The notes: a model not told the origin generated them from the letters alone. Counted from the stretch's first letter, positions 45,289-64,000 are shown. The stretch is DNA of 64,000 bases from Nitrospirota bacterium (GCA_963699545.1 CAVOUE010000005.1:96001-160000), one strand, 5' to 3'. Numbers and translations are program-made.

Positions 45289-45289
45289 C

Positions 45290-45508
45290 CTATTTGACCG
45301 TGAGGAGTATCATTGTGGCGATCACGAAGCCGAGGATCACCATGGTTTCGGGAATCGCCAGCAGAATAATAATGGTACCGCTTAACTCCGGCTTCTCAGC
45401 AAGGGTTCCCGCACCTGCTGCTCCGATCCGTGACTGTGCCCATGCAGTGGCAATGGCCGAAAGACCGATTGCCAGGGCAGCGGCAAAAGCGACGAGTACC
45501 TTTTCCAT
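45290..45508 (-). CDS. atpK: V/A-type ATP synthase proteolipid subunit K (c), single hairpin
   Basis: 72 aa with two TM helices; AWAQ..IG, AEKP and AIPET; strong SD. Confidence 0.95.
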   Translation of the reverse strand: MEKVLVAFAAALAIGLSAIATAWAQSRIGAAGAGTLAEKPELSGTIIILLAIPETMVILGFVIATMILLTVK

Positions 45509-45573
45509 AACCCTTTCCTCCTTTTTAAGCCCGGCCCCGTCCGGACGACAACGGCGGGACCGATAGCCAATGG

Positions 45574-47457: not shown

Positions 47458-47801
47458 GATGACTCCCGACCTTTTTCTGAGGAGAGTGACGGCACTATGC
47501 GGGGAATATACTTCAGGAGTATGGTTTTCAGGGCCTCGTCGCTGATGCGGGCGAGCTTTTCTGTCTCGAGGATTGAATCCCCCACTATCTCTGACGCTTG
47601 CTTCTCGGCCTCCGCGACTGTTTCATCAACGGCTTTTTTATAGCACACATCTAACTGTTCTTCTTCCCCGCCAATCTCCTCTTCCGCTTGCTTCCTTGCG
47701 CTTTCGATCCACTCGATGGACCTGCTCTTCTCCTCCCTCAGCTTCTCCTGAATCTCTCTCTCGACCTCTATCACTTTGCTGAGGATGTCTTTTTCCATCA
47801 C
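47454..47801 (-). CDS. V/A-type ATP synthase peripheral stalk subunit H/G
   Basis: Acidic coiled coil of 115 aa immediately upstream of subunit I. Confidence 0.75.
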   Translation of the reverse strand: MMEKDILSKVIEVEREIQEKLREEKSRSIEWIESARKQAEEEIGGEEEQLDVCYKKAVDETVAEAEKQASEIVGDSILETEKLARISDEALKTILLKYIPRIVPSLSSEKGRESS

Positions 47802-49018: not shown

Positions 49019-49146
49019 GCATACCTCCTGGGAGGCGTTATATCCTTACGTGGGTAAGCGTACTATCCATTCATGCCCTCTCTGTGGCCCTTTCACACGA
49101 TGGAAGCCTGTTCCGTGCGCTTTCTCTTCAAGCCATCCCTCTCTAC

Positions 49147-49175
49147 AGTATATAGGCTTCGATGCAGATGGTCAA
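49147..49175 (-). promoter_or_regulatory. Sigma70 promoter of the glgC-ATPase operon
   Basis: TTGACC (49170-49175), 17 nt spacer, TATACT (49147-49152). Confidence 0.7.
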
Positions 49176-49191
49176 GAAAAAGAACGGAACA

Positions 49192-50127
49192 TTAAAACAG
49201 GGGACGGACGCACCTTGGATCAGGAGCGCGCAGATCGCCGCAGATCAGAAGGCTGACTGCTGGACATCCTCCGTGACAGAGGGGAAAAAGTTCACATCCC
49301 CTATGGGTACAGGTATTCCCCTCGAATCTCCTGAAGAAGTCCAGTTTCGGGCTCTCCCATATCTCATCGAAACCGCTGACCAGAATATTGCCGAGCCTGA
49401 ACTCCTGGTTGCGAAAAAAGAGATAGCATGGATACACCGAACCATCCGGCAAAACGGAAAGCTTTGTTGTACCCGCAGGGCACCGGACATATTCCAGGAC
49501 GGGATAAGTGGTAACGTCCGGAATAAACCCCGAACAGAATACCCCCTTAAGACCCAGATGATCCCTCTTCAGCGGTACAAGGTCATGGAAGAACTCATAA
49601 AAAGGCCGGCAGCTTCTGAGGTCATCCCGGGACACGGCATCCGCATAAAGCAGATAATATGTGAGACCCGGCAGAAAGAGGTACTCTCTCGCCGCGTCGG
49701 TGAGTTTCCGGTCTTTCGTAGAGACACTCTTGAGCATCGGCCTGCATGTGGTGATATATCGGTGCAACTCGCCGGGAATCACCTCCGAGTGAAGAGAGAC
49801 CCCCACCCTCACCACCCCATTGTCGTACCTGCGATGAAGATGCTCAAGCAGCCGGACATCGTGACCGTTGGTACTGAGGGTGGTCCTCATTGCACGGGCA
49901 GATGCTCTTTCGACTAATTCACCCAAGCCCGGATGGAGGGTCGGTTCGCCCCCGAGAATATCCAGGCCTTGTATTCCCCTCTCGGAGAGTAGGGACACGA
50001 TCCTCTCAAAGTCGCAGACCGAGACATCAGCCTGTGAGGGGATTCCCCGATTGAAACAGAAAGAGCAGGAGAGATTGCATCTCAGCGTGCAATACAACTG
50101 AATGTAGTCGGGAACGCTTCTGTACAA
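49192..50127 (-). CDS. Radical SAM/SPASM domain protein
   Basis: CNLSCSFC and GGEP; SPASM pattern C.AG...DG.VYPC...C...C.....C.GGCP...DP.C; TTG start after GGAGG. Confidence 0.92.
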   Translation of the reverse strand: MYRSVPDYIQLYCTLRCNLSCSFCFNRGIPSQADVSVCDFERIVSLLSERGIQGLDILGGEPTLHPGLGELVERASARAMRTTLSTNGHDVRLLEHLHRRYDNGVVRVGVSLHSEVIPGELHRYITTCRPMLKSVSTKDRKLTDAAREYLFLPGLTYYLLYADAVSRDDLRSCRPFYEFFHDLVPLKRDHLGLKGVFCSGFIPDVTTYPVLEYVRCPAGTTKLSVLPDGSVYPCYLFFRNQEFRLGNILVSGFDEIWESPKLDFFRRFEGNTCTHRGCELFPLCHGGCPAVSLLICGDLRAPDPRCVRPLF

Positions 50128-50216
50128 ATGTCCTCCGCTTCTGCCCGCACTGCTCTGCACTTATTGTAGCACCCGGCTGGATTTTTGGCACTCCAGAGAG
50201 TATAATTGAACCACGT

Positions 50217-50657
50217 ATGGAACAGCAGAAGTTCGAGCTCGCCGATATATTCCGGAGATGGCTCGTAAAGATCGACATGGCCTTCCACGTTGTGGCGGCA
50301 CTCCTTTTGCTCGCTGCATGCAGCCTTATTCTCTATTATGGCTTGCTCACCGTGCTCCATCCTTCACGGGAATCCATACTACACCTTGTCAACGACGTGC
50401 TCCTTGCGTTGATCATGCTCGAACTCCTTTGGACAGTTATACGGTTCTTGAAGAGACAGAAATTCGTCTTGGGACCTTTCCTTGCCATCGGCATTATAGC
50501 AGCGGTAAGGAGGATACTCCTCGTAGAGGCGCAGACGTCTTTCCTGGAGCACGTCCCCATGGAGAAGTTGTATGAAATAGGGTTGAGTGCTGTTGTGGTC
50601 TTGATTCTTATGATCGCCTACTACCTGTCCGCGAAGGCCGAGAGGCTTGAACAGTAG
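50217..50657 (+). CDS. PsiE-family membrane protein
   Basis: LL.LI..EL..TV and PFL.IGIIA.VR.IL motifs. Confidence 0.88.
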   Translation: MEQQKFELADIFRRWLVKIDMAFHVVAALLLLAACSLILYYGLLTVLHPSRESILHLVNDVLLALIMLELLWTVIRFLKRQKFVLGPFLAIGIIAAVRRILLVEAQTSFLEHVPMEKLYEIGLSAVVVLILMIAYYLSAKAERLEQ

Positions 50658-50672
50658 AAACGGGGGGAACAA

Positions 50673-51170
50673 ATGGCTGATGAACATTTCTTCGATGTCG
50701 TCTGTAACGTAGACCTGCAGGAAGTTTCCAATGCCGTAAACCAGGCGATGAAAGAGATAGAGCAGCGCTTTGATTTCAAGGGAAGCAAGAGCTCCATAGA
50801 GCTGGACAAGGGCAAGGCGGTCATCACTCTCGCCTCCGATGACGAAACCAAACTGAAGAGCGTCATCGATATCCTCCAGTCCAAGCTCGTGAAACGCACC
50901 ATATCCCTGAAGGCCTTGAATTACGGCAAAATTGAACAGGCTGCCGGAAGCACGGTGCGCCAGGTGATCACCCTCCAACAGGGAATTCCTCAGGACAAGG
51001 CAAAGGAGATGGTGAAGCTCATCAAAGACCTGAAGCTGAAGGTGAACGCAGAGATACAGAAGGACCAGGTCCGGGTAAGGGCGAAAAAGATCGATGACCT
51101 CCAGCTGATCATCGCTAAACTGAAGGAAAAAGACTTCGGCATCGCCCTTCAGTTCACCAACTACCGTTAA
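50673..51170 (+). CDS. yajQ: YajQ-family nucleotide/c-di-GMP-binding protein
   Basis: FDVV..VD.QEV.NAV, RFDFKG, L.QGI, K.IDDLQ, LQFTNYR. Confidence 0.96.
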
Positions 51171-51326: not shown

Positions 51327-51746
51327 TTAAAAAGATAATGTTCCTTTCGCTTTGCTTGCCAGCGTGATGAGGTTCATAGCCCCTGCTGCCCTGACACCGG
51401 GAATCAGGTCTTCTTCCGTGATCTTTTTGTTCGCCATGGTCTGGGAACACGACTGGATCTCGACTCCCATCTCCATCGCCTCGGTGAGCCTTTGTGTAAG
51501 TGTCGGAACCCCGGGCTGGGGAACTTCGTTCTTCTCGATGGCGCCCTTGACCAGAACATCCACGGCATTCTGGATGCAGTAGAGTATGGTCTTGTAGTTC
51601 GCTGACGCGGCGAGCGTGGCGAACATCAGGGCGGAGCGGGCCCTGGGTATGCTGTCAAATCCTGAAGCCGACAGGACGATGAAAAGCTCATCTATGTCCT
51701 GTTTCCCCGAGTGATTCGCTTCAAAAACCTTTTCTGTCGTCGCCAT
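51327..51746 (-). CDS. DsrE/DsrF-like protein
   Basis: GVEIQSCSQT (conserved Cys position) and L.PGV...GA motifs; SD AAAAGGAGG. Confidence 0.85.
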   Translation of the reverse strand: MATTEKVFEANHSGKQDIDELFIVLSASGFDSIPRARSALMFATLAASANYKTILYCIQNAVDVLVKGAIEKNEVPQPGVPTLTQRLTEAMEMGVEIQSCSQTMANKKITEEDLIPGVRAAGAMNLITLASKAKGTLSF

Positions 51747-51810
51747 TGTTACCTCCTTTTTCACTTTAAGGTTATTATCTTCAGCCGCCGCCATCGGGAC
51801 ACCCACCCTT

Positions 51811-52407
51811 TCAGGCCCCCAACATAAAATATGTTCCGCTAACGGCGATCGCCAGTCCGGCCAGTCTCAGCAGTCTGGTCCCCTTCCGGCTGTGCACAGC
51901 CATATACCCCGTCACGGCCCCGAGGATATGCAACCCCGCTGTTGCAGCGCAAAATCCGAGAGCATACATGGCGGGTTCTGCAAGGCGAGGCATTTCGGTG
52001 CCGTGAGCATGGCCGTGGAAGAGGGCAAAGAATCCGACAAAGCCCATCGCAACGGAGACCGGTAGTTTCCTCGCTGCCGCAAGGGCGCTGCCGAGGGCCA
52101 GGACAGAGAAGGCTATCCACAATTCTACCATCGGCAGTGCAATGCCCTTCATGCCGAGGATGCCGCCCACAGACATGACCGTCACAAAAGTTGCCGGAAC
52201 GGTCCATATCGCCCTTCCCCCCATCTGTGCGCTGAGGAAACCCACGGTGACCATGGCAAGGAGGTGGTCAAAGCCGAAGACGGGATGATTCAATCCCGAA
52301 ACAAAACCGCTGTCGCCGGCATTTCCATGAGCTCCGGCAATTCCGGGGATCAACACCATAACCGTGGTACCCAGGAACATATGTATCATTCGTTTATCCC
52401 ATTTCAT
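51811..52407 (-). CDS. HupE/UreJ-family Ni/Co permease
   Basis: Signal peptide followed by His; HP..G.DHLLAMV.VG, FHGHAHGTE, LH..G. Confidence 0.95.
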   Translation of the reverse strand: MKWDKRMIHMFLGTTVMVLIPGIAGAHGNAGDSGFVSGLNHPVFGFDHLLAMVTVGFLSAQMGGRAIWTVPATFVTVMSVGGILGMKGIALPMVELWIAFSVLALGSALAAARKLPVSVAMGFVGFFALFHGHAHGTEMPRLAEPAMYALGFCAATAGLHILGAVTGYMAVHSRKGTRLLRLAGLAIAVSGTYFMLGA

Positions 52408-52466
52408 CGTCGGGGCCCCCTTTACGTAAGGTTAATGGAACATGTGTTCCCACGCTGTTTCTGTCC

Positions 52467-53738
52467 CTACACAGCCAATACCGCATGAGGGGCATTGGCT
52501 ATTTTTGACAACACGGATCCGAACTCTCCCTTCCTCAGGACGTGCTCTGTGAGTTCGCTCTTTATGGACGTAATATCTGCCCGGCTGCGTATGAAGCGAG
52601 TGAGGATGCCGGCGTAGTCTATTTGGCTCACAAGCACGGCTCCTACAAGCCTGTTTCCCTCAAATACGAGTTTTCTGTATACTTTTCCTTTTCGAAAGGC
52701 CTTTACTTCATGGCTTTCACTGGTTTGGTTCGTGATGCCCATTGTCATGACGGGAAGGCCGTAGACTTCAACGGAGTTCATTCCCATGCCGCCCGCGTAA
52801 GCGCGCTGACCACCAGCCATGTTGTAGCCCGCTACTCGCCCCTGTTCGTACGCAAGGGGCACGATGGCGATCACCGAATCTCTGTTGTTGAGTATATCCG
52901 AGGCTTCGGCCACATCTCCTGCCGCGTAAATATTGTTGATACTCGTCATCATCCACTTGTCAACAACTATGCCTCTGTTTACGCGGACGGGAGTGTTCTT
53001 CACAATATCCATATTGGGCCTGACCCCAATGGCGATAATAAGGATCTCGCACTCAAGTTTTTTGTTGTTATCGAGGATTATTCCGCAGACATTCCCCTTC
53101 CCATCGGATAGTATTTCCTTCGCGGTATGACCTGCGATCAATTTGATACCGTTGTCTCTGAGTTGTCTGTTCACTATCGCGCCCGAGACTTCATCGAGCG
53201 CCACTGCCAGAATCCTCGGCCCAAGTTCAACAATTGTCACCTCCAATCCCAGGTCATTGATTCCCTCGGCGGCTTTGAGACCTATGAGCCCTCCGCCGAT
53301 GACCACTGCCTTCTTCTTCCCATGGGCAACTTTTTTTATTTTCTTCGCATCGTCCCACTTGGTAAAACTGAAGACGTTGTGCGCTTCAAGACCCTTTATA
53401 GGGGGGATAAAAGGCTGGCCCCCCGTACCGATCAGAAGCCTGTCGTATACGAAGACCGTTCCGTCCTCAAGGGATATTTGCCGACGCGCGCTGCTGATGT
53501 TTACGACCTTTTTCCCCAAGATGAGCCTTACATTGTTCTTTTTATAGAAACCGGCCGACCGATAGTACATGTCCTTCGATGCGACGTGACCGCCCAGATT
53601 ATAGGAAATAAGGGGTCTCGCATAGGCGAGATACGGCTCGTCGGATATCATCGTGATATCACCTTCACGGTCACGTTCCCTGATTCCTTCTACAGCCCCC
53701 ACTCCCGCATATGAGTTACCGACGATCACGTACTTCAT
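52467..53738 (-). CDS. FAD-dependent pyridine nucleotide oxidoreductase (NirB-N/rubredoxin reductase-like)
   Basis: VIVGNSYAG, Y.RP, GGGLIG, IYAAGDVA, A..QG..AG.NM, C-terminal Y.KLV....L.GA. Confidence 0.92.
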   Translation of the reverse strand: MKYVIVGNSYAGVGAVEGIRERDREGDITMISDEPYLAYARPLISYNLGGHVASKDMYYRSAGFYKKNNVRLILGKKVVNISSARRQISLEDGTVFVYDRLLIGTGGQPFIPPIKGLEAHNVFSFTKWDDAKKIKKVAHGKKKAVVIGGGLIGLKAAEGINDLGLEVTIVELGPRILAVALDEVSGAIVNRQLRDNGIKLIAGHTAKEILSDGKGNVCGIILDNNKKLECEILIIAIGVRPNMDIVKNTPVRVNRGIVVDKWMMTSINNIYAAGDVAEASDILNNRDSVIAIVPLAYEQGRVAGYNMAGGQRAYAGGMGMNSVEVYGLPVMTMGITNQTSESHEVKAFRKGKVYRKLVFEGNRLVGAVLVSQIDYAGILTRFIRSRADITSIKSELTEHVLRKGEFGSVLSKIANAPHAVLAV

Positions 53739-54238
53739 TTTACCGGCGTATCCTCCCTTTCTCCTGTCAAAAACCTTGCTGCCGCCTTTTTCCTCACCGC
53801 ACTCGAAAGGTCGTGAACATCGCTGTGGCCAAGGATTCCCCTCTCGCATGCGGCCACACAGGCCGGGACCTCCCTATCGGGGCATCCCTCGCATTTCAGG
53901 GCAATGTGCTCGCCCTCCACCCTTTCAATCGCGCCGAAAGGACAATTCATGATGCACATCCAGCACCCGATGCAGCGGCTGTAATCAGTGACAACCCGTC
54001 CCTTTCCATTCCTGTGCCTGCTGCCCGACATGCAGGCGGTGGCGCAGGGGGCGTCTTCGCAGTTCCGGCAGATGACCGGGACATACGCGTTCCCGTTCCT
54101 GAGGAGCTTTATGCCGGCGATCTTTTTCATGCCCCTGCCTTGTTTCTTCGGGGCCGCCCTAAGGCATGCCTCAATGCATTTCCCGCATCCGTCGCAAACC
54201 CCGGGGCCAAGGGTCACCTTTCCCGTCTTTCTCGGCAT
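53735..54238 (-). CDS. 4x[4Fe-4S] ferredoxin-like protein (CooF/HydN type)
   Basis: CDGCGKCIEAC, CRNCEDAPCATAC, CIGCWMCIMNCP, KCEGC....PACVAAC. Confidence 0.93.
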   Translation of the reverse strand: MPRKTGKVTLGPGVCDGCGKCIEACLRAAPKKQGRGMKKIAGIKLLRNGNAYVPVICRNCEDAPCATACMSGSRHRNGKGRVVTDYSRCIGCWMCIMNCPFGAIERVEGEHIALKCEGCPDREVPACVAACERGILGHSDVHDLSSAVRKKAAARFLTGEREDTPVK

Positions 54239-54586
54239 TTATTTCAATGACTCCAGATACGTTGCAAGGTCCAGAAACATCTTCTCTGTCAGCTTATCGA
54301 ACTTCGGCATATTCTCCGGATGTTTCAGATGGGTGGCTGAGGGATCGGCGAGGTTCTTTATCTGCCATTCGATCCCCCTCTTCCTGGCGCTTTCATTTGT
54401 CAGGTCAGGGCCGGTGTTCCCGCCTTCGTTGCCGATCTTGTGGCAGTAATAACACCTCATTTTGTTATACAGGAGCTTCCCGTTCTCGGGAGAACCCGTC
54501 TTTTCTTTCGTTGCCGCCCATGCCTCTGCCCCCCAGAGAACTGTCACCGAAACCGCGACCATAACCAGAAACTTAAGGGTGTTCAT
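54239..54586 (-). CDS. Periplasmic monoheme cytochrome c
   Basis: SD GAGGAGG; signal peptide ending AWA; CYYCH, GPDL, MP.F, L..YL.SLK. Confidence 0.92.
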   Translation of the reverse strand: MNTLKFLVMVAVSVTVLWGAEAWAATKEKTGSPENGKLLYNKMRCYYCHKIGNEGGNTGPDLTNESARKRGIEWQIKNLADPSATHLKHPENMPKFDKLTEKMFLDLATYLESLK

Positions 54587-54627
54587 TGCTTCCTCCTCTT
54601 TTGTGGTATATTTTTTTGAGGCCTGCG

Positions 54628-55392
54628 TTATTTTTTCTTTTTGCCCCAGGGGCAGACCGACATGCAGACGCCGCATATGGGATAGCCGACCCCCGATATG
54701 TTCTTGAATTTCAGCCAGAGCGTATCCCGGCACCTGGGGAAATCGAGCACCTCTTCCCTGGGAGGCGGAATGCCGTCAAAACTCAACCCTCTGATGGCCT
54801 TTGCAGGACATGCCTTTACGCACTCCTCACATGTCCCACACCTGCTCTTCATAGGCGTGTCCGGGGTGAGCGGCATGTTGGTGATGACCGAGGCATGCCT
54901 GAATCTCGGTCCCATTTCCGGGTTCACAATGAGCAGGCTCTTCCCGAACCATCCCAGTCCCGCAGCTCTCGCCACCGCCTTGCTCGGCAGGGTTGAGGAA
55001 GTGAGAGGTCCCCAATCCAGTTCCTTCGCCGCCTTCGTATCCAATTTTTCAGCGATGCTTGCGGCTTCAGAGGCAGGCACCGGTATGGCGTCATATCCAG
55101 CATGAATTATTTCACGCGCCAGATCGAAGGTAATAAGGTCAAGCAGGGTGTTTGCCATTCTATGGACATGGGCATAGGACGGTGTGGGCCTGTCCTCTAT
55201 GCGGTCCAACACACTGTCGTTGAGGCGCACTCCCACGCTTACGGCCATGGTAAAGCCCTCAAGAAGGTTCGCGGGCTTCGTGGGTATCCCCCTGAGGAGG
55301 CCCAGATCCGCGATCCCGATGATGTCCGCTCCCTTTTCAACGGCGCTTTTTTTTATCCTTAGCGTTGCCTGTATTCCGCGTATCAGGTCCAA
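54628..55392 (-). CDS. QueG/reductive-dehalogenase-like double [4Fe-4S] protein
   Basis: GAD..GIA, K..A..AGLG..GK..L...P..GPR.R..SV.T, CGTCEECVKACP and C...CGVCMSVCP. Confidence 0.85.
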   Translation of the reverse strand: MDLIRGIQATLRIKKSAVEKGADIIGIADLGLLRGIPTKPANLLEGFTMAVSVGVRLNDSVLDRIEDRPTPSYAHVHRMANTLLDLITFDLAREIIHAGYDAIPVPASEAASIAEKLDTKAAKELDWGPLTSSTLPSKAVARAAGLGWFGKSLLIVNPEMGPRFRHASVITNMPLTPDTPMKSRCGTCEECVKACPAKAIRGLSFDGIPPPREEVLDFPRCRDTLWLKFKNISGVGYPICGVCMSVCPWGKKKK

Positions 55393-55395
55393 TAT

Positions 55396-56326
55396 TCACT
55401 CCATATTAGGACGAAGTTGGCAGGTAACGGCATGAGCAAGAAGTTCTTCGTCATGGGCTTGTTTTATCCGTCCCATCTCCCGGTAAACCCCGGACAGGAG
55501 GAGATGGACTTCGGGATAATCCGGTCTGAGACGAATGGCTTTCCTGTAATATCTGGCCGCCCCGTATTTCCTTCCCATTTCGGAATAGAGGGTCCCGAGG
55601 TTGATATAATTTTCGGCATCTCCCGGTCTCAGCCGTGCTACTTTCTTCAGGATGCGCTCCGCTTCCTTCAGGCGGCCTGACTTCCTGTAGAGCCTGCCGA
55701 GGTTGTTCAGCGCCGGCAGATAATCAGGCCTGAGCGTGACCGCCCTGCGAAAGTTCTCTTCGGCCTGCACCACGTTCTCCTTTGAACTCAAAGAGCTGCC
55801 CGAGGTTGTTGTAGATCTCGGGCTGCTTATGCATCTTTCTGAGAAGGTCCTGATACAGAGGGATCGCCTCTTCGGCCCGCCCGACGGAGGAGAAGGCAAA
55901 GGCCAGGTGATAGAGATACCGGGGATTAGCGCGGTCCAGCCGCACCGCCTCTTTCCACAGCCCGGCAGCCCGCTCCAGGTCCAGCTTCTTATAAAAGACC
56001 AGGGCCAGGTTGTGGCGGAGCGGCGCGGAACCAGGGTTTGTTCTTATGGCTTCAGAGAAAAGCCTTTCCGCCTCGCCGTAATCTCCGCGTCCCAGGGCCT
56101 TTATCCCGTCTTTGTTCAGGGCGGTCGAAAGTCCCCCCGGGGAGGAAAGGGAAACAGGTTCCAGCGGGAAAAGGAAAGGCCTCGCTCCGCCGTACATCTT
56201 CTTCCAGTAAGCCTGGTCCCGTGCCGTCCAGTCATTGCATGCATGGACGTCAAAGGCATGCAGAGAGAATGTGAGGAGCAGCGCGACCAGCGCCAGGGTT
56301 GTCATCGTGTTCATTTTGCACCTCAT
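55396..56326 (-). CDS. Exported TPR-repeat protein (indel ~55782)
   Basis: Signal peptide; tandem TPRs (HNLA, YHLA, NNLG, NNLG, INLG) across ORFs 55724-56326 and 55396-55899. Confidence 0.85.
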
Positions 56327-56330
56327 CGCG

Positions 56331-56792
56331 TCATTTCACCTCGAAGTAGCTGTAGAGCCTTTCGAGGGCAGCCCCGAAGAGGATCTTCGCCAATCTGCCC
56401 TTCTGTTCCCTGGCCATGGCCACCGCCCTGTAGCTGCCTTTCTTCAGTCTGCCCCTGTCTGTCGCCTTCTCCTGCATCACGGCCTTCTTAAGGTCGAATA
56501 CAAAGTCCAGCCACTCATCGGGCTTGAGAAGGACCGTGCTGCACTTCTCCTCGGAGACCGCGGTGTAGGTGCCTCCGGAGAGCCCTTCTACCCAGAAGCA
56601 GACCTTCAGCTCCTTCATCTCCGCGCTCCTGTTGGCGTGAGCGCCGTTATGGATCCTGAGATAGAAGGTTTCCTTCGAGTCATCGGCCCAGAATCTCGGC
56701 TCCATGTTCCAATGTGCCAGGGCCGGAGCCGAGTGGAACAAGACTCCGAGGAGCGCGGCAACACACAGCCCTGTGACATACGGGTAACGCAT
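56331..56792 (-). CDS. Exported hypothetical protein (beta-rich)
   Basis: Signal peptide ending ALA with His at +1; 1 nt from the ABC ATPase stop. Confidence 0.75.
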   Translation of the reverse strand: MRYPYVTGLCVAALLGVLFHSAPALAHWNMEPRFWADDSKETFYLRIHNGAHANRSAEMKELKVCFWVEGLSGGTYTAVSEEKCSTVLLKPDEWLDFVFDLKKAVMQEKATDRGRLKKGSYRAVAMAREQKGRLAKILFGAALERLYSYFEVK

Positions 56793-56793
56793 A

Positions 56794-57657
56794 TCAGTGT
56801 CTTATGAGATCAGCGAGATGAGTCCTGTATTCGATGAATTCAGGACTTGTCCTCTCCCTCGGATGCGGCAGGTTTATGTTTACCACTTCCCTGATCTGGC
56901 CGGGTCTTGCGCTGAAGACAATGACTCTGTTGGCCAGATAGGCAGCCTCCTCGATATCATGGGTGACAAAAACTATGGTCTGCTCTATGCTCTGCCATAT
57001 CCTTATGAGATGGTCCTGGAGGTTGTTCCTTGTCTGGGCATCCAGCGCGCCGAAGGGCTCGTCCATCAGGAGAACTTCGGGATGGTTCACGATCGCCCTG
57101 CCCACGGCGACCCTCTGGAGCATTCCCCCCGAAAGCGTCCTCGGGTATGACTTCTCGAAGCCGGTGAGCTGAATGAGATCTATCGTCTTCGTCACCTGTT
57201 TCTTCCTCTCCTCACTTTCCACTCCCTGAAGTCTTGGACCGAGGCTTATATTGCTTTCGACCGTGAGCCATGGGAAGACCGCCCGCTCGCTCTGGAACAC
57301 CATGGCCCTCTGGGGGTGCGGGCCATCTATGCACACGCCTTTGCACTTTGCCACGCCGTTGGAGGGAGATTCAAAGCCCGCCAGTATCCTCAGAAGGGTG
57401 CTCTTCCCGCAGCCGCTCGGGCCGAGGAACGCGACGAATTCCCCGTGGTCGATGTTCAGGGTCACGTCCTTGAGCGCCACCAGCTCACAGGGTTTCTTTC
57501 TTGAAAAGAAGCGTTTCTTTTCGGTGATCACCGTCTCCCCGTGGGTCGTGTAAACATAGAAGGATTTGGAGACGTTCTCTATCTCCATGACGTGCCGTCC
57601 GTTGTGGATGGTCTTGCTCCGGGGACCGGAAATCCGCTCGATATTTTTCTTCATCAT
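56794..57657 (-). CDS. NitT/TauT-family ABC transporter ATP-binding protein
   Basis: GPSGCGKS, FPWLTV, LSGGM.QR, LLMDEPFGALDAQTR, VTHDIEEA, RPG.I; SD GGGAGG before 57657. Confidence 0.96.
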   Translation of the reverse strand: MMKKNIERISGPRSKTIHNGRHVMEIENVSKSFYVYTTHGETVITEKKRFFSRKKPCELVALKDVTLNIDHGEFVAFLGPSGCGKSTLLRILAGFESPSNGVAKCKGVCIDGPHPQRAMVFQSERAVFPWLTVESNISLGPRLQGVESEERKKQVTKTIDLIQLTGFEKSYPRTLSGGMLQRVAVGRAIVNHPEVLLMDEPFGALDAQTRNNLQDHLIRIWQSIEQTIVFVTHDIEEAAYLANRVIVFSARPGQIREVVNINLPHPRERTSPEFIEYRTHLADLIRH

Positions 57658-57692
57658 TGCTACCTCCCTGTTCTCTTCAATAGACGTTTCCA

Positions 57693-58691
57693 TCATTGCC
57701 ACCTCACAATCGCCTGTTCTGTTTTCCGTAAAATAGTGTCGAAGAGTATCCCGAGCATGCAGATCACCACCATCCCCCCCAGGACCGTCGGAGTATCAAG
57801 GAGGTTCCTCGCGTCTTCGATCATCCATCCAAGCCCGGCATCCACCGCTACCAGCTCTGCGGTTACAAGGCATACCCAGCCAATGCCGAAGCCGATCCTT
57901 ATCCCGGTAAAGATGGTGGGGAACGCCGACGGCAGCATCACCCTTCCGTAGACGTCCATCCTCTTTCCGCCGAGGGTAAGTATCGATTCGACATGTATCT
58001 GCTGTGTATTCCTGATGCCGCGAATTGTATTCAGGAGGATCGGGAAGAAAGATCCAAGCCAGATTATGTATATCGCCGGCGGGTTACCGATCCCGAACCA
58101 CAGGATCGCAAAGGGCAGCCACGCCGGAGGAGGTATCACTCTGATAAGATTCAGAAGGGGATCAATATAGTCTGAAATCCTGCGGAAATTGGCGATGAGG
58201 AACCCGAGCGGTATCCCGGTGAGAATGGCAAGGAAAAAGGCGATGAAGAGCCGCTGTAGCGATGCTATGATATGTATCTGCAGATAGTGCTTTGCCCAGT
58301 GGCCCTCCAGCTTTGCTATCACCGTCGTGGGCGGAGGGAGAAGGACCGACCTGACAAAATGTGTATATACGATCATCTCCCAGCAAATCAGGACAACCCC
58401 AACCGAAGTCAATGCGCGGACAAGAACGATCGGAATCACTTTCGGAAACCTGGACTTCAGAAGATGGAGAATAGCTATCGCGATCGCCACTCCGATCGCG
58501 AAGTGGAGTGGGTTGTAGACCTCCCCTACCTTGAACTCCTTCTCCATAGGCCTGTTCCAGGTGTCAACAGGCCCTCCTTTCTGGTCGTACACCTGTTCTG
58601 CCCCATAGGTCACTGCGACCTGCACCACCAGGAACCCCAGGGCCAAGGCCATGACCACGGCCAGTACACATATCTTTTTCCTGAACTCCAT
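57693..58691 (-). CDS. NitT/TauT-family ABC permease (third), with N-terminal extension
   Basis: LPPP, IPPPAWLP.AILWFGIG, FFPILLNT..G, LP...TG.RIG.G.GW..LV.AE, GLG. Confidence 0.95.
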   Translation of the reverse strand: MEFRKKICVLAVVMALALGFLVVQVAVTYGAEQVYDQKGGPVDTWNRPMEKEFKVGEVYNPLHFAIGVAIAIAILHLLKSRFPKVIPIVLVRALTSVGVVLICWEMIVYTHFVRSVLLPPPTTVIAKLEGHWAKHYLQIHIIASLQRLFIAFFLAILTGIPLGFLIANFRRISDYIDPLLNLIRVIPPPAWLPFAILWFGIGNPPAIYIIWLGSFFPILLNTIRGIRNTQQIHVESILTLGGKRMDVYGRVMLPSAFPTIFTGIRIGFGIGWVCLVTAELVAVDAGLGWMIEDARNLLDTPTVLGGMVVICMLGILFDTILRKTEQAIVRWQ

Positions 58692-58696
58692 TAATG

Positions 58697-59665
58697 TTAC
58701 CTCCCCTCGTTACAGAGTATTTTTTTGTTTATTTTTGTGATGTCCGACTCAACCTGAAGAAAAACACCTCCTCTTCTAAGGATGAAAAACCTTTCGATCT
58801 TCTTTAGGAAAATATCCATGGTAAGCCCCAGGGCACATACCGTCGTCATTCCTACAAACACCGTGGGCGTTTCGAGCCGGTTCCTCGCGCCTTCGATCAT
58901 AAAACCGAGTCCGCTGTCCGCAGCAACGATCTCCGCACTCACCAGGACAAGCCAGCCGATGCCGAAGCCGATCCTTATACCGGTGAGAATAGTGGGCAGA
59001 GCGGAAGGGATGATCACATGCCTTAAGACATCCATGCTGTTCCCTCCCAGCGTCTGTATCACCTCAATGTGAAGTTTTTCCGCCTCCCTCACGCCCTGCA
59101 CGGTGTTCAGAAGGATGGGGAAGAAAGATCCGAGGGCTATCACAAAAACAGCAGGACCCTCCCCGATCCCGAGCAGGATGATGGCGAAGGGCAAGATGGC
59201 AGGAGCAGGGACCATCCTCATAAAATTCAAGGGAGGGGCCAACCAGTCATATGCCTTTTTGAAAAGACCGAGCATAATACCAACGGGAACAGCAATGACA
59301 AGGGCAAGAGAAAACCCCGCCAGAAACCTGCTCATGGTAGCGATGATGTTTGCCTGCAAATACCCTTTCTTCAGGAAATAGACTGTCTTTGTGATGATGA
59401 CCGACGGAGGCGCGAGGAGCATGCTCCTGAAGATCCCGAGGTAGAGGGTCCCCTCCCAGAGAAGGAGGAAGAGCGACCACACCACGAAGGTCCCGTAAAG
59501 CTCCCTGGAGATTGCATGTTCCGCATAATATCGGGAAAGCGTTGCCAGCAGCAGCACCGCCGAAACAGCAGCTATAAAGAAGAGTGGATGAATCGTACAC
59601 CTCCCTGAAATACTCCCTGTCTGTTCCAGTTCCAGTAATTCATGACCATCCCTGCACAAGTCCAT
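58697..59665 (-). CDS. NitT/TauT-family ABC permease (second); start uncertain, possibly 59643 with an indel
   Basis: L.PP, VP.PA.LP, FFPILLNT..GV, LP.ILTG.RIG.G.GW..LV.AE. Confidence 0.93.
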   Translation of the reverse strand: MDLCRDGHELLELEQTGSISGRCTIHPLFFIAAVSAVLLLATLSRYYAEHAISRELYGTFVVWSLFLLLWEGTLYLGIFRSMLLAPPSVIITKTVYFLKKGYLQANIIATMSRFLAGFSLALVIAVPVGIMLGLFKKAYDWLAPPLNFMRMVPAPAILPFAIILLGIGEGPAVFVIALGSFFPILLNTVQGVREAEKLHIEVIQTLGGNSMDVLRHVIIPSALPTILTGIRIGFGIGWLVLVSAEIVAADSGLGFMIEGARNRLETPTVFVGMTTVCALGLTMDIFLKKIERFFILRRGGVFLQVESDITKINKKILCNEGR

Positions 59666-60513
59666 CGAACTTTTTCAGGATGAGATCGGTTATTGTCCCG
59701 AGCATGCCCACCACGATTATGCCGCTCAGGACCGTAGTCGTATCGAGAAGGATTCTCGAGTCCTGGATCATCCATCCCAGTCCGGCTCCGATATCCACGG
59801 AGGCCAGTTCGGCAGTGATCACCGTTATCCACCCGATTCCAAGCCCTATCCTCGCCCCTGTCAATATGTGGTGATAGGCTACCGGCAGGATTACCTCCAT
59901 AAGCACGTCAAACTTGTCTCCTCCAAAAGTCAAAACCGTTTCTACCTGAACCGGTTCGGCCTTGTTCACCCCATTCACCGTATTCATAAAGATGGGGAAA
60001 AAAACCCCGAGCCATATGATGAATATCGCAGAGGCATAACCGATACCGAACCACAATATCGCAAGAGAGAGCCACGCAGGCGCCGGAATCATACGGACCG
60101 CATTGATCAGGGACTCAATGGGTGAAAAACGTTTCGAAAAATAGCTCACTAAAATGCCGAGCGTGACTGCACTGAGAAGGGCCAGAACAAATGCATATGC
60201 CAGCCTGAAAAGCGTTGAACCTATCTGGGGCTGGAGGAACCCTATCGACCAGAGATATACGATATTCGAAAAAAACTTTGTGGGTGGCGGCAAAAGCACG
60301 GGACTCAGGAGCTTTAGTAACGACAACATTTCCCAGACAAAGAGGAGAACCGCTTGCCACGATGAAGCCCTTCAGCAAAGAGGAGGAGACCAACCCGGGA
60401 AAGAGGCGTCGTGCGACAGCAAGGACTACACATAAGAAGAGTAATATGAGGATGAAGAACGGTGAAGCGATGATATCTCCGCTTTCCATTTCTGGAAAAA
60501 TATTGCCATGCAT
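59640..60513 (-). CDS. NitT/TauT-family ABC permease (first; indel ~60354)
   Basis: The N-terminal TM in ORF 60115-60513 joins LPPP, IP.PAW, FFPIFMNT and TG.RIGLG.GW..VI.AE in ORF 59640-60329. Confidence 0.92.
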
Positions 60514-60560
60514 CAGGGTGCCCCTTTTATAAGGTATATATTTTATTAATTACGAATATC

Positions 60561-60593
60561 AAGGAAGGATCCCCAGCCCGGGGACCCCTCCCT
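60561..60593 (-). other. Intra-operon stem-loop after the solute-binding protein gene
   Basis: AGGGAGGGGUCCCC-GGGCU-GGGGAUCCUUCCUU; no long U tail. Confidence 0.7.
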
Positions 60594-60601
60594 GACACAT
60601 C

Positions 60602-61633
60602 CTACAGTCCCAGCTCCGGCAGAGATGAAAGCCCCATCTCTTTCAGCGCCAATTTCTGGAATCTGTCGTTCAGACCGTCTTTCTGGAACACTGCCTTCTC
60701 GATTATCCCGAGGGCCTTCGTCGCCTCGGCAAACTTCTGCGACCCTTCAGGGTCGAGGCTGAGGTTGAGCCTCTGCCGTTTTTCTCTGAAGACCGTTGCG
60801 ATCTCCTTTTCATCGATGCCGCACCATTTTGCATTCGCCCTGACGTTGTCATCAAAGTTCTTCGCGATATGCATGTAGCCCTTTATGTGGGCCTTCATGA
60901 CCTTCGTCGCAACCTCCACGTTCTTGTTCGCCCAGTCTGTGCCGAACGCCATCCGGCAGCATACGTGTCTCGGCCAAATATCCTTCGAAAAGATCGCCGG
61001 CCTGCCGTATTTTGTCGCCTCTGCATGGGTCGCCCAAGGCTCCCAGAGTATCGCGCAATCAAGGTCACCCTTTTCGAGCCCCGTGAGGATGTCCTGGTTG
61101 TGGGTGAAGTTTCTCACTGTGGCGTCCTTGAAGGGATCTATGCCTGCCTCCAACATCTTGTACCGCACAACGATATCAGCGGTCGCGGCCCTGATCGTGC
61201 CTATCTTTTTACCGCGCAGGTCCTTCACTGTCTTGATGTCCGAAGGCCGGTTCATCGGCACCACCACTGCCGAAGACTCCATGGCAGAACCCGAAACTAT
61301 GTTCATGGGCACGTCCCTGGTTACCATGCCTATGGACGGGCTTGAGCCCAGATATGCGACCTGAATCGCTCCGGTAATACAGGCAGAACCGATCTCCCCG
61401 GACCCCTGGAAGAGAACCGGCTTGACGTCGAGTCCTTCATCCTTGTAAAAGCCCTGTTCAAGGGCCACAAAGAGGGGGGCATGATGCGTCGCCTTCAGAT
61501 ATCCGATCTTGATCTCTTCCTTGGCCAGGGATTTCTTGACAAAAGGCCCAATAAATGACCCGCCCAGGACAAATGCCCCAGTGGCCACCATTGAGGCTTT
61601 CACAAAATCCCGTCTGTTCAGCTTTTTGTCCAT
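60602..61633 (-). CDS. NrtA/CmpA/SsuA-like ABC substrate-binding protein with Tat signal
   Basis: RRDFVK; IKIGYL...HAPL.VA.E.G, DL.GK.IG, WEPW, W..H.CC. Confidence 0.92.
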   Translation of the reverse strand: MDKKLNRRDFVKASMVATGAFVLGGSFIGPFVKKSLAKEEIKIGYLKATHHAPLFVALEQGFYKDEGLDVKPVLFQGSGEIGSACITGAIQVAYLGSSPSIGMVTRDVPMNIVSGSAMESSAVVVPMNRPSDIKTVKDLRGKKIGTIRAATADIVVRYKMLEAGIDPFKDATVRNFTHNQDILTGLEKGDLDCAILWEPWATHAEATKYGRPAIFSKDIWPRHVCCRMAFGTDWANKNVEVATKVMKAHIKGYMHIAKNFDDNVRANAKWCGIDEKEIATVFREKRQRLNLSLDPEGSQKFAEATKALGIIEKAVFQKDGLNDRFQKLALKEMGLSSLPELGL

Positions 61634-61656
61634 TCTTCCTCCTTCTTCCTTTTTGA

Positions 61657-61702
61657 GAGTAAGAGTTGGACGTCTTAATCCGTCCAATGCGCCTCTTTAC
61701 TC
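61657..61702 (-). other. Intra-operon stem-loop between the OsmC-like and SBP genes
   Basis: GAGUAAAGAG-GCGCA-UUGGACG-loop-CGUCCAA-CUCUUACUC. Confidence 0.65.
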
Positions 61703-61708
61703 ATACTC

Positions 61709-62248
61709 TTATGCGTTGTATACGAGCTCGGTCTTTACATTTACCGTTTTACAAATCGTCAATCCCACGGGCGAGAACTGTACGACACGGTCGAAGACCT
61801 TCTTGATCGCTTCCTTGCTCGCGTCGCTCTTGATGTGCACTTTGGCCTTCACGGTATGGTAGCCGGGAAGGTCCTTCAGCCCTTCAAGACCCGAGAGACG
61901 GAGAAAACCCGGCAGATCGATGTGGCCTTCCAGATCAATCTCGATGCTCTTTAATTGTATCCCCTCTAAGGCAGCATTGAGACTCAATCCAACTGTCAGG
62001 CAGGCCCCATAGCAAGCAAGAATTGTTTCATGGGGGCTTATCGCCGTATCAGTACCTGCTACAGCCTCAGGCTCATCAAAGTTCAGAGTGAAGTTCCTGA
62101 GCTTGGCCTCAGACTTCAGTCCGCCTTTCCATTTTGTTTTTGCGGTCCATATCGTCGCCCCTTTCTTGGGATCATCCTTAACGGCATTGACCGTAGCTTT
62201 GAACACCTCAAGATCGACATCATTAACCATTTTGGTTCCAACAGCCAT
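61709..62248 (-). CDS. OsmC-family protein
   Basis: DEP....G.D...SP.E..L....AC, L.G.IDL.GF, PGY..V, SPV..T; SD GAGGAGG. Confidence 0.9.
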   Translation of the reverse strand: MAVGTKMVNDVDLEVFKATVNAVKDDPKKGATIWTAKTKWKGGLKSEAKLRNFTLNFDEPEAVAGTDTAISPHETILACYGACLTVGLSLNAALEGIQLKSIEIDLEGHIDLPGFLRLSGLEGLKDLPGYHTVKAKVHIKSDASKEAIKKVFDRVVQFSPVGLTICKTVNVKTELVYNA

Positions 62249-62329
62249 GTTTGTTACCTCCTCTTTTTTTGTTTACCATTCGTAACCCCTGCCTTTCACT
62301 GCACTTGCGCCTCGTACCTCCACCTCCTT

Positions 62330-62878
62330 TCAGGGAAAGAAAACGTTTGGTTTCAGTGTCGGATTCACAACCGCTGCGATCCTTCCTATTGAACGAACGC
62401 TGTACTTCTTCCTTATCAGCTTCGACAACTCTTGCAGATCACCGTAATACATCGCCTCGGAGGGACAGTTCTGAACGCACGCAGGTATCCCGCCTTTGGA
62501 TGTCCTGTGAATGCAGAGGGTGCATTTCTGCATCTTCAGGTCCTCACCCATTTGAGGCGCTCCGAAGGGGCACGCCCTGAAGCATTCAACGCACCCAATA
62601 CATAAATCCTTGTTCACCAGCACAATGCCGTCTTCTTCTCTTTTTGATATAGCCTTCGTGGGGCAGACCCTCAGGCACGCAGGGGAACCGCAGTGCATGC
62701 ACGCCATGGGTTTCCAGTGAATCTTCCATTCACCCGCCACCTTGCTTTCGACCTCCATAACCTGTATCCACTTGGGGCCGGGAGGAACGCCGTTTTCGGC
62801 CTTGCACGCTGTTTCACACGCGTGGCAGCCCACGCACCGGAATGTGTCGACAAATATCGCCTTGTGGTGGTTATGCAT
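62330..62878 (-). CDS. DmsB/NrfC-like four-cluster Fe-S subunit
   Basis: CVGCHACETACK.EN, CMHC..PAC..VCP, CIGC..C..ACPFGA, KC.LC.....PACV..CP. Confidence 0.95.
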   Translation of the reverse strand: MHNHHKAIFVDTFRCVGCHACETACKAENGVPPGPKWIQVMEVESKVAGEWKIHWKPMACMHCGSPACLRVCPTKAISKREEDGIVLVNKDLCIGCVECFRACPFGAPQMGEDLKMQKCTLCIHRTSKGGIPACVQNCPSEAMYYGDLQELSKLIRKKYSVRSIGRIAAVVNPTLKPNVFFP

Positions 62879-64000
62879 GGACCCCCTCCTTTTTTATCTG
62901 CACCAGACAGTTGAAATAGGCAATGGTGTGCCCGTCCCGCTCAAAGTCATACTCCTCCATAATCCCGGCCCCCACGTCCCTGGGCCCTCCTATCAGTTGT
63001 TCAAGCAGGACATTGGCGCTCCCGTTGCTCTTTACCCATATACCGCTGTTCACCTCACATACGCCTGCCTTTATCCTGTTCGTCATCTTTGCGATCACCG
63101 ATATCTCTCCCCTGTCATTGAAAACCTTCACCCTGTCACCGTTCTCTATTCCGCGGTCCACCGCATCCTTTTCGTTGATGAAGATGCTGGGGGGACCTTC
63201 TATCTCCTGAATCTCTTCTATGTTGAACCACTGGCTGTGGGTCCTGTAGGGTGCATGCTGGGAGATGAGCATGAGAGGATATTTCTTGTAGAGGTCCGGA
63301 CGGCTGACGGGACTCTCTGCAGTCTCCTCAAAATGAGGTACAGGATGCCAGTCCCCGGCATATTTTTTCCCCTTTTCGACCATTCCCGTTGAATAGAGCT
63401 CCACCTTTCCGGTTGGGGTATCGAATACCCTGTCGCTCCAGGGGATGCGGGGAGCATACTTTTCCGGAACCCTTATGGGATCGTTGGAAGCAAGGGCATT
63501 CTTTATCGTGCTATGGCTGATATCGTCGGCAAGGAACTCCCTGATCCAGTCAAGCCCTGTATACTCCTTGGGGAAGAACTTTTCGTATCCCATTCTCCGC
63601 CCCAGTTCACACCAGAAGTCGATGTCTGGCTTCGACTCAAAGAGAGGTTCTATCACGGGCATCTGGAGTTGGAGATAGGGATGCCAGTAGGAAGGATGAA
63701 CTCCCCACTGCTCAAACGTATCGCTCGCGGGAAGGACCAGGTCCGCCCAGTCCGTGTCATCAGTCATGAAGAGTTCCATGCTTACGAAGAGCTCGAGTTT
63801 CTTGATGGCTTCCGTCATCCGGTGGACATTCGGATGCTGGCTGATGAGTCCTCCTCTCCAGGAGATGACCGCCTTGAGCGGAGGGTCCTTCGCTTCCCTC
63901 AGCGCAGGGCCGAAGGTGCTTATGTTGATGAGCCTTCTCCTCAGGGTTTTGTGCGGAGCGCCCCTCGGATACATCACCCTCTCGAAGTTAAGAATCCCCT
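62871..64000 (-). CDS. Molybdopterin (bis-PGD, DMSO reductase family) oxidoreductase catalytic subunit, 5' part outside the window
   Basis: FMT.....ADLVLPA...FE, PVIEPLFESK, F.TPTGKVELYS, YPL.L...H.....HS, IN..DA..RGI..GD.V.VFN.RG. Confidence 0.95.
   Translation of the reverse strand, partial: GILNFERVMYPRGAPHKTLRRRLINISTFGPALREAKDPPLKAVISWRGGLISQHPNVHRMTEAIKKLELFVSMELFMTDDTDWADLVLPASDTFEQWGVHPSYWHPYLQLQMPVIEPLFESKPDIDFWCELGRRMGYEKFFPKEYTGLDWIREFLADDISHSTIKNALASNDPIRVPEKYAPRIPWSDRVFDTPTGKVELYSTGMVEKGKKYAGDWHPVPHFEETAESPVSRPDLYKKYPLMLISQHAPYRTHSQWFNIEEIQEIEGPPSIFINEKDAVDRGIENGDRVKVFNDRGEISVIAKMTNRIKAGVCEVNSGIWVKSNGSANVLLEQLIGGPRDVGAGIMEEYDFERDGHTIAYFNCLVQIKKEGVHA

Follow-up and report, generated by a model that had tools for sequence, protein, structure and literature searches.

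A 64,000-nucleotide stretch of a Nitrospirota genome (contig C5:96001-160000, referred to here as the window) ends in 16 genes, all on the minus strand (51327..64000), which belong to a real and conserved operon around an uncharacterised clade of molybdoenzymes with a cysteine or selenocysteine (Cys/Sec) metal ligand. The operon has convergent links to thiol relays and to methyl-sulfur metabolism, and is apparently undescribed. As predicted from sequence, it is a sigma-54 operon encoding a NitT/TauT importer, a Cys/Sec molybdenum (or tungsten) bis(pyranopterin guanine dinucleotide) (Mo/W-bisPGD) enzyme with an iron-sulfur (Fe-S) subunit, a ferredoxin and a flavoprotein, two OsmC proteins and a DsrE protein.

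Structure and recurrence of the operon

A first-pass annotation of the window had described 16 co-oriented genes in the order below, with overlaps or gaps under about 90 nt. All 16 are present, Pfam agrees with each label, and the measured intergenic spacing is -26 to +88 nt.

62871..64000, minus strand: Mo/W-bisPGD catalytic subunit, 3' part (Pfam Molybdopterin); the full gene, 740 aa, is at C5:158871-161093
62330..62878, minus strand: DmsB-like 4x[4Fe-4S] electron-transfer subunit (Pfam Fer4_11)
61709..62248, minus strand: OsmC2, OsmC-fold protein with CYGAC, and SPVG at the usual resolving-Cys site (Pfam OsmC)
60602..61633, minus strand: NitT/TauT (SsuA/NrtA-like) binding protein of twin-arginine translocation (Tat) type, with conserved HxCCR, WCG and basic KRQR motifs (Pfam NMT1_2)
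59640..60513, minus strand: ATP-binding cassette (ABC) permease 1, 290 aa in relatives, split here by an extra base near 60348 (BPD_transp_1)
58697..59665, minus strand: ABC permease 2 (BPD_transp_1)
57693..58691, minus strand: ABC permease 3 (BPD_transp_1)
56794..57702, minus strand: ABC ATPase, NitT/TauT type (ABC_tran)
56331..56792, minus strand: exported protein, no Pfam family, two conserved Cys; follows the ATPase in its 8 loci
55396..56326, minus strand: exported TPR protein, 305-336 aa in relatives, split here by one extra base (TPR)
54628..55392, minus strand: QueG/RdhA-like double [4Fe-4S] protein, accessory (Fer4_16; weak QueG and RdhA NCBIfam matches); has a paralogue in the coenzyme M-type block described below
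54239..54586, minus strand: exported monoheme cytochrome c, accessory (Cytochrom_C); not in the Nitrospinota-type loci L023, L054 and L055
53735..54238, minus strand: CooF/PadI-like ferredoxin (Fer4_11; below the PadI cut-off)
52467..53738, minus strand: FAD-dependent NAD(P)H oxidoreductase (Pyr_redox_2; best match PadH, 324 bits against a cut-off of 475)
51811..52407, minus strand: HupE/UreJ nickel/cobalt permease (HupE_UreJ)
51327..51746, minus strand: DsrE-family protein with a conserved CSQT/CTQT cysteine (Pfam DsrE); members in coenzyme M-type blocks are 71-72% identical

The binding protein starts with the twin-arginine motif NRRDFVK, as read from the sequence, which agrees with its earlier description as Tat-exported. 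Permease 1 and the TPR gene each contain one surplus base in the assembly. These splits are very likely assembly errors, because each gene is a single open reading frame (ORF) in two other loci (L018 and L052) and contigs of two public runs (X1 and X3) lack the base at 60348. Pseudogenes inside the operon were ruled out, as only single-base errors are present. Scans of the operon for internal sigma-70 promoters (5 against 9.1 expected, at or below chance) and for internal terminators (13 against 12.5 expected, about chance) gave no signal.

The same gene order recurs in other genomes, so the arrangement is not a product of chance, and the proposal that the run is one operon is borne out. The core order (Mo subunit, Fe-S subunit, OsmC2, binding protein, three permeases, ATPase, exported protein, ferredoxin, flavoprotein) was found in L018, L020, L021, L023 and L052-L055, among which L023/L054, L020/L021 and L052/L053 are near-duplicate loci, and is known in Nitrospirota and Nitrospinota. 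The DmsB-like gene stands immediately after the Mo gene in every locus reaching that far. Cytochrome c, the QueG-like protein, the TPR protein, HupE, OsmC1 (see below) and DsrE are variable members. The 16-gene set is not a fixed unit, and outside Nitrospirota and Nitrospinota the enzyme has other transporters and partners. Enzyme and binding protein co-occur: three of 60 relatives carry the enzyme at a level of at least 76%, and the same three carry the binding protein at 83% or more. The enzyme is rare, being found in none of 300 other genomes in a phylum sample (three candidates scored per genome), and a plasmid collection held no close relative of it (best match 32.5%).

Carriers of the enzyme include fermenters and syntrophs, and 21 of the 29 carrier genomes are Firmicutes or Synergistota. 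Neomoorella humiferrea (WP_106006541.1) and Dehalobacterium formicoaceticum (WP_089610116.1) are cultured carriers. A second ferredoxin and an FAD oxidoreductase stand beside the enzyme in both Nitrospirota and Firmicutes, with the FAD cluster present in 25 of 71 loci. Between ferredoxin and flavoprotein, some Firmicutes and Synergistota loci have a short protein with only the N-terminal aldehyde:ferredoxin oxidoreductase domain (L025:4938-6161, L030:13236-14201 and L032:13319-14239). Directly after the Mo genes of the Dehalobacterium genome are a DUF169 protein, a glycyl radical enzyme and an activase (L027:12729-17962); the glycyl radical enzyme scores below every named cut-off (best 542 of 678 bits).

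The operon continues beyond the window end on contig C5. Recovery of the upstream sequence, which the first-pass annotation had called for, yielded the full Mo gene, a second OsmC gene, a sigma-54 site and a GAF/sigma-54 activator. The second OsmC gene (OsmC1) is the 17th of the operon and retains both the peroxidatic and the resolving Cys. The -24/-12 site (TGGTACG-N4-TTGCT, C5:161601) lies about 70 nt before the OsmC1 start. Across the 3.04-Mb assembly the strict pattern has 12 occurrences, two of them in front of this operon, and it was found upstream of the Mo enzyme in 13 related loci. The activator gene is at C5:161926-163428 (L001:5926-7428), and in all 11 orthologues and paralogues that were aligned its GAF domain contains GEC(M/L/V)CG, a motif that might sense a thiol or a metal. 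Upstream of the activator, and divergent, are genes for a molybdopterin-binding protein, a two-subunit enzyme of the xanthine oxidase family, XdhC and a probable nucleotidyltransferase (C5:164103-169491; L001:8103-13491). Molybdopterin-biosynthesis genes lie near the enzyme gene.

The neighbours downstream (window 43755-51170) are unrelated to the operon and include YajQ, PsiE and a radical SAM/SPASM protein, together with ORFs that we take to be GlgC and V-type ATPase subunits. An acetyl-CoA synthase match on contig C4 (198822-199920) is in two pieces with one TGA inside, which may be an assembly error or recoding. We infer that the host is a Nitrospirota sulfate reducer; its genome contains dsrA, selA and tRNA-Sec.

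Placement and features of the molybdoenzyme clade

By its sequence, the catalytic subunit falls in a sharply bounded, uncharacterised Cys/Sec group within the dimethyl sulfoxide (DMSO) reductase superfamily. Domains PF00384, PF04879 and PF01568 all score over cut-off, as in members of that superfamily. Of the 120 matches listed, 81 make up a block of homologues at 46-93% identity, and the rest are at 36% or below. A profile search of 1.84 billion representatives gave one match of 1,287 bits, the next reaching 650. No named-family model in NCBIfam reached its cut-off for the catalytic subunit. The best was DmsA/YnfE TIGR02166 (326.6 of 777.7 bits), and the scores for formate dehydrogenase (260/666), PhsA (218/694), NasC (199/1100), NapA (102/904), ArrA (101/1600) and TtrA (57/1750) were likewise below. 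The best PDB sequence match (phmmer) was acetylene hydratase and the second PsrA, both at 24-25% identity. The predicted structure (pLDDT 90.8) placed DMSO reductase and MtsZ at the top Foldseek ranks.

In a tree of 55 sequences, the 25 clade members were monophyletic (FastTree 1.0; IQ-TREE 91.8 as parsed). Their sister group consists of unnamed proteins with CPHDCPDTC and TIC motifs, possibly akin to the uncharacterised MopB_3 / YyaE-like group of CDD. Clade and sisters together join Escherichia coli DmsA, YnfE/F, TorA and BisC, and not Psr-like proteins or NapA/FdhF (support 0.97; 96). This position near DmsA/TorA/BisC is a hint only, because acetylene hydratase, PsrA, ArrA and SoeA were absent from the tree. 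The first-pass annotation had suspected an uncharacterised Mo-bisPGD clade and had named two outcomes that would speak against a new system: grouping with a characterised clade that explains the neighbours, and a gene set that never recurs in other genomes while RNA-seq shows several independent transcripts. The enzyme instead has its own branch, no solved structure exceeds 25% identity to it, and the core of the gene set recurs in other genomes.

The catalytic subunit has the Fe-S motif CxxxCxxxC...C. No Tat signal or twin-arginine leader was found in the full 740-aa sequence, so the subunit is predicted to be cytoplasmic, and no operon protein matches the DmsC anchor. A periplasmic respiratory reductase was ruled out, there being neither Tat leader nor membrane anchor. 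The predicted metal ligand is Cys168 (GSFCILSG), which aligns with the Cys of the PsrA segment SLCTA, the selenocysteine of FdhF and the Cys of NapA. The residue after it is Ile, Leu or Val, and the Sec/Cys-His pair of FdhF is not matched. The ligand codon was readable in 65 of 71 clade loci, with 62 encoding Cys (including the host copy) and three being TGA. By sequence, the three TGA orthologues qualify as selenoproteins: selA is present in all three genomes, and a hairpin of -13 kcal/mol, calculated without a shuffle control, lies 15 nt on from the TGA codon. A basal subgroup (L077, L079 and L084) has the ligand motif GTFCDASE and archaeal-looking neighbours, with a corrinoid protein upstream in L079 and a sodium:solute symporter in L077.

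Importer, thiol and methyl-sulfur links, and the proposed reaction

The importer has the NMT1-like binding protein, BPD_transp_1 permeases and ATPase of the NitT/TauT type. Its subfamily models are all below cut-off (SsuA 119/163.5, TauA 52/304, NtrCD 218/292). The three distinct permeases are about 46-51% identical in their core and are kept in all loci spanning the transporter (window 57693-60513); a conserved importer with three distinct permeases is unusual in itself. The CC motif of the binding protein is also found in the binding protein of the coenzyme M-type block, the two being about 30% identical.

OsmC2 is a probable thiol or sulfur carrier, judging by its conserved residues. Cys83 is invariant in 48 of 48 aligned homologues. 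SPVG occupies the resolving site in 14 of 14 aligned proteins, which thus lack the two-cysteine arrangement of Ohr/OsmC peroxidases, and a CxxxC motif is present; the absent resolving Cys and the CxxxC would fit a carrier better than a peroxidase. An Atlas search gave no substrate clue for OsmC2, and for the exported protein at 56331..56792 it gave matches at 0.87-0.90 only, a lead at most, and again no substrate clue. The thiol module has different parts in different lineages: OsmC2 in Nitrospirota and Nitrospinota; a CxxC CMD (AhpD-type) protein, a lipoyl-fused dihydrolipoamide dehydrogenase and lipoate ligase in gut Firmicutes and Synergistota; and GcvH, LipS1/S2, CMD and HdrBC-like genes in Syntrophomonadaceae and Desulfitobacterium. 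With members grouped at 90% identity and only loci of 9 kb or more considered, which excluded 6 groups, a thiol or lipoyl module was present in 16 of 25 clade groups versus 0 of 10 control loci of outside relatives. AhpD and OsmC are both reduced via lipoyl proteins, according to the available text of PMC8945050.

In L022, L027 and L029 the enzyme has MtmB-like and corrinoid genes as direct neighbours. These MtmB homologues without pyrrolysine are a conserved group from three distant lineages (L022:14194-15609, L027:4074-5468 and L029:12655-14049); the L022 protein is an open 471-aa frame with Gly aligned to pyrrolysine position 202. Methylamine was ruled out as their substrate, since pyrrolysine is absent. 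In genome G062, the operon end continues into DsrE, a second OsmC2 and an MtaA/corrinoid/activator block within 17 kb downstream, and in G067 the distance to such a block is about 20 kb, within one contig. Seven of the eight UroD-family proteins checked have HxCG and six also have a C-terminal GC. This His-Cys-Cys set marks S/Se-methyltransferases in the available text of PMC10418091.

The host also has a block of coenzyme M (CoM) type on contig C3 (861500-884200; part in L050). It comprises cysteate synthase, fused ComDE, HdrD-like and NarI-like proteins, a NitT/TauT ABC transporter and the activator RACo, together with a corrinoid protein, two MtaA-like proteins, MtrH-like, CMD, OsmC and CobW. 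These are followed by a GAF/sigma-54 activator paralogous to that of the operon, OsmC2, DsrE and a rhodanese with an export signal. The Mo operon and this block share paralogues of the activator (71% identical), DsrE (72%) and OsmC2 (49%), and the QueG-like protein is also common to both. On contig C1 (1-48748; L047) the whole block is contiguous with a Mo operon. The nucleotide identity of C1 to C3, C5, C6, C9 and C12 is about 66-90%. Because it matches several separate genome places (70-90% identical) and is full of frameshifts, it is probably from a co-binned sister organism, and a second true operon copy in the genome was rejected. In G064, an OsmC2 paralogue ends the Mo operon and DsrE lies between cysteate synthase and comDE (L111:11167-14190); this DsrE may be the sulfur carrier in the last step of CoM synthesis. 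Cysteate synthase is present in nine of 11 relatives with a DsrE of the operon type versus 30 of 60 overall, and the three of 33 Nitrospinota-group genomes with the enzyme are all among the seven with cysteate synthase. These counts are only suggestive, because kin are not independent.

We tentatively propose that the operon drives the NAD(P)H-dependent reduction of an imported anionic organosulfur compound, such as methanesulfinate or an oxidised CoM species, to a thiol; we infer both the substrate and the direction. The enzyme most likely works as an oxygen-atom-transfer reductase. The importer would take up the oxidised organosulfur anion. Electrons from NAD(P)H would pass from the flavoprotein to the CooF-like ferredoxin, the B subunit and the metal. 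The metal would take one oxygen atom off a sulfinate (R-SO2-) or thiosulfinate, in an overall four-electron reduction to the thiol. A thiol-reactive product would be caught as a mixed disulfide on OsmC2 or DsrE and freed as R-SH; in Firmicutes, AhpD-type CMD and lipoyl carriers would take this role. Where R is methyl, corrinoid methyltransferases (MtaA-like and non-pyrrolysine MtmB-like) might pass it to a CoM-type thiol or tetrahydrofolate, the sulfur then being taken by DsrE or rhodanese. The likeliest substrates would be methanesulfinate or an over-oxidised form of the host's CoM-type thiol, which would suit an anion importer with basic conserved residues. A four-electron reduction is the reading that needs all three themes, namely the NAD(P)H module, the thiol relay and corrinoid methyl transfer. 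Sulfinates resist thiols, and it is sulfenates that react with them. Reduction of a sulfoxide would call for no thiol relay, unlike that of a sulfinate or thiosulfinate. In the available text of PMC12713407, CoM is put forward as a thiol antioxidant of Methanosarcina. The first-pass annotation had suggested import and redox conversion of one, probably sulfur-containing, compound. The link to sulfur is stronger than first thought; the restriction to a single compound, and the identity of that compound, are conjectural. On a more novel but unlikely reading, the clade would comprise the first enzymes to reduce an organic sulfinate to the thiol level without ATP, by coupling Mo oxygen-atom transfer to a protein-thiol relay, and would feed methanesulfinate or over-oxidised CoM into CoM/corrinoid methyl transfer in Nitrospirota and Nitrospinota. 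Oxidised methyl-sulfur in groundwater, wetlands, digesters and the gut would then have an anaerobic sink that has gone unrecognised.

Several observations weigh against organosulfinate reduction. Foldseek returned solved structures at about equal scores (TM 0.71-0.80, at most 25% identity) with no family singled out, and the tree lacked the two best PDB matches, acetylene hydratase and polysulfide reductase. A structure search with the binding protein found nitrate, bicarbonate, taurine and sulfonate binders equally weak (E 1e-12 to 1e-3) and pointed to no substrate. The 16-of-25 module count was obtained with queries from the neighbourhoods of the clade itself, and kinship among the genomes means that they are not independent; a thiol module is missing from nine of the 25 groups, and in many rumen Lachnospiraceae the locus consists of the two enzyme subunits only. 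The operon has no lipoyl system, a weak GcvH match and a dihydrolipoamide dehydrogenase being on another contig. The methyl link is not general: of the 29 carrier genomes, 4 have MtmB-like and 8 have MtaA-like genes, most Firmicutes carriers having none of the methyltransferases. Cysteate synthase was not found in two of the eight Nitrospirota/Nitrospinota carriers, nor in any of the 21 others (6/29 positive), and within the host's order it is too common (31 of 61 genomes) to serve as a specific marker. In one metatranscriptome run, 60597-62389 is covered by a contig of 1,793 nt that shows 91 differences, and there are shorter pieces at other places; we did not count this as evidence, because contigs cannot show a transcript and DNA may be present. 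The sole characterised non-pyrrolysine MtmB, as described in the available text of PMC13044021, demethylates the quaternary amines tetramethylammonium and choline, not thiols.

The same parts could run in the opposite direction, with a thiol or sulfinate oxidised at the metal to a sulfinate or sulfonate, cysteine or lipoyl proteins delivering a disulfide, and the ferredoxin-flavoprotein pair making NADH, as in SoeAB or the sHdr-lipoate system. PadH, the flavoprotein's best match, is a subunit of an NAD-reducing dehydrogenase, the LipS1/LipS2, GcvH and HdrBC-like genes beside the Firmicutes enzyme resemble the sHdr lipoate module, and oxidisers use DsrE to carry sulfur. We nevertheless consider this direction unlikely: a high-affinity anion importer suits an already oxidised substrate, the host is a dsrA-bearing anaerobe and other carriers include fermenters and syntrophs, and thiol oxidation by NAD+ would be expected to be uphill. 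The tree position near DmsA/TorA/BisC, the DmsA/YnfE model as best in NCBIfam, the top Foldseek ranks of DMSO reductase and MtsZ, and a redox-sensing MarR/RrpA-like regulator upstream of some rumen loci would all suit a plain two-electron sulfoxide or N-oxide reductase (acting on DMSO, methionine sulfoxide, methyl-CoM sulfoxide or lipoate S-oxide) whose role is the repair or respiration of an oxidised thioether, with the thiol proteins as co-regulated support against oxidative stress. The ligand in DmsA, TorA and BisC is Ser, however, and here Cys/Sec, the DmsA/YnfE score is less than half of its cut-off (327 of 778), and three different relays have been recruited where none is needed, which makes such an enzyme rather unlikely.

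Sulfur-sulfur bond cleavage, the chemistry of polysulfide and thiosulfate reductases, seems comparably improbable. Here a thiosulfate, thiosulfonate or disulfide would be split and its sulfane sulfur passed to OsmC2 or DsrE, for example in the last step of CoM synthesis, which is given as unresolved in the available text of PMC12713407. The Cys ligand resembles that of PsrA (the second-best PDB sequence match), the G064 DsrE gene lies between cysteate synthase and comDE, and an OsmC2-DsrE-rhodanese run stands beside the CoM block. However, PhsA scores 218 bits against a cut-off of 694 and Psr-like proteins of the relatives branch elsewhere, the 21 Firmicutes and Synergistota among the 29 carriers lack cysteate synthase, and the adjacent MtmB-like genes are left unexplained. 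A methylated selenium or arsenic oxyanion (methaneseleninate, methylarsonate or dimethylarsinate) that is reduced, bound by a dithiol and demethylated, akin to the proposed SAO or mlp clusters, is the kind of substrate that the Sec ligand in three loci might suggest. SaoP and SaoA give good scores for the permeases and the ATPase, the CC motif of the binding protein is like that of SaoX (available text of bioRxiv 2022.07.06.499078), and MtaA-like proteins act on selenide (available text of PMC10418091). This is very unlikely: no Sao score reaches its cut-off, and no selD was detected in 11 of 29 carriers. One of these 11 is G073, in which the enzyme has MtmB-like and corrinoid genes beside it. 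The CC motif is also present in the CoM-block binding protein, and no arsenic efflux or regulator gene is among the annotated neighbours. Selenium salvage as a general function was ruled out by the same selD result.

Many clades of the DMSO reductase superfamily have no assigned substrate. This one can be assayed now, because it is sharply bounded and has cultured carriers and an informative neighbourhood. Organosulfinate reduction, if true, would be a new reaction in molybdenum enzymology and a missing anaerobic step of the organic sulfur cycle. It would also give a purpose to the archaeal-type coenzyme M genes that are common in the host's order of sulfate reducers.

Comparison with known systems

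The earlier suggestion that no described pathway has this gene combination agrees with our search of the open literature, which found none, most subscription papers and supplementary tables being outside its scope. DmsAB/YnfEF, TorA, BisC and MtsZ share with the present enzyme the Mo-bisPGD fold (TM 0.75-0.79), the CxxxCxxxC Fe-S motif and a DmsB-like partner, and form the nearest characterised tree branch. They differ in that identity is 25-29%, the ligand here is Cys/Sec and not Ser, there is no Tat signal or DmsC anchor, and the enzyme is coupled to an NAD(P)H module, an importer and thiol proteins. PsrA/PhsA and acetylene hydratase are the best PDB sequence matches (206 and 211 bits), and Cys168 is aligned to the PsrA Cys; identity is nevertheless 24-25%, PhsA remains at 218/694 bits and the enzyme here is predicted to be cytoplasmic, while acetylene hydratase also has a different Fe-S motif spacing. 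The PadI/PadH NAD-coupling module has the same succession of a CooF-like 4Fe-4S protein and an FAD oxidoreductase, but the pair here is below both cut-offs and serves a Mo-bisPGD enzyme. CooF-FNOR and AorA/AorC are further NAD-coupling modules of ferredoxin and flavoprotein.

The Type 1 mlp clusters (Kountz and Balskus, PMC10418091), proposed in the available text for methyl-sulfur or methyl-selenium recycling, have MtaA-like His-Cys-Cys methyltransferases, a corrinoid protein and an activator, and such genes adjoin the operon in G062, L022 and contig C1. However, the main text of that paper does not contain 'molybd', 'OsmC', 'Nitrospir', 'cysteate' or 'MtmB', and in its available text clusters with tetrahydrofolate methylases are excluded, whereas the block here has MtrH-like genes. 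The SAO system of Clostridioides difficile (Haft and Gwadz, bioRxiv 2022.07.06.499078), in the available text of the preprint, resembles the operon in its NitT/TauT importer, CC-motif binding protein, DsrE-like protein and use of selenocysteine. Here, in contrast, SaoX (80/300), SaoP (134-177/295) and SaoA (250/360) are all below cut-off, the permeases have no in-frame TGA, no operon protein matches the MerB-like SaoL, and there are three permeases and not one; SAO as described has no Mo enzyme, the available preprint text using 'molybdopterin' once and 'OsmC' never. Lipoyl-dependent AhpD and Ohr/OsmC peroxidases (available text of PMC8945050) also combine OsmC-fold and CxxC CMD proteins, and lipoyl proteins and dihydrolipoamide dehydrogenase are present in the Firmicutes loci. 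Unlike those peroxidases, OsmC2 has CxxxC in place of a resolving Cys and is tied to a molybdoenzyme operon.

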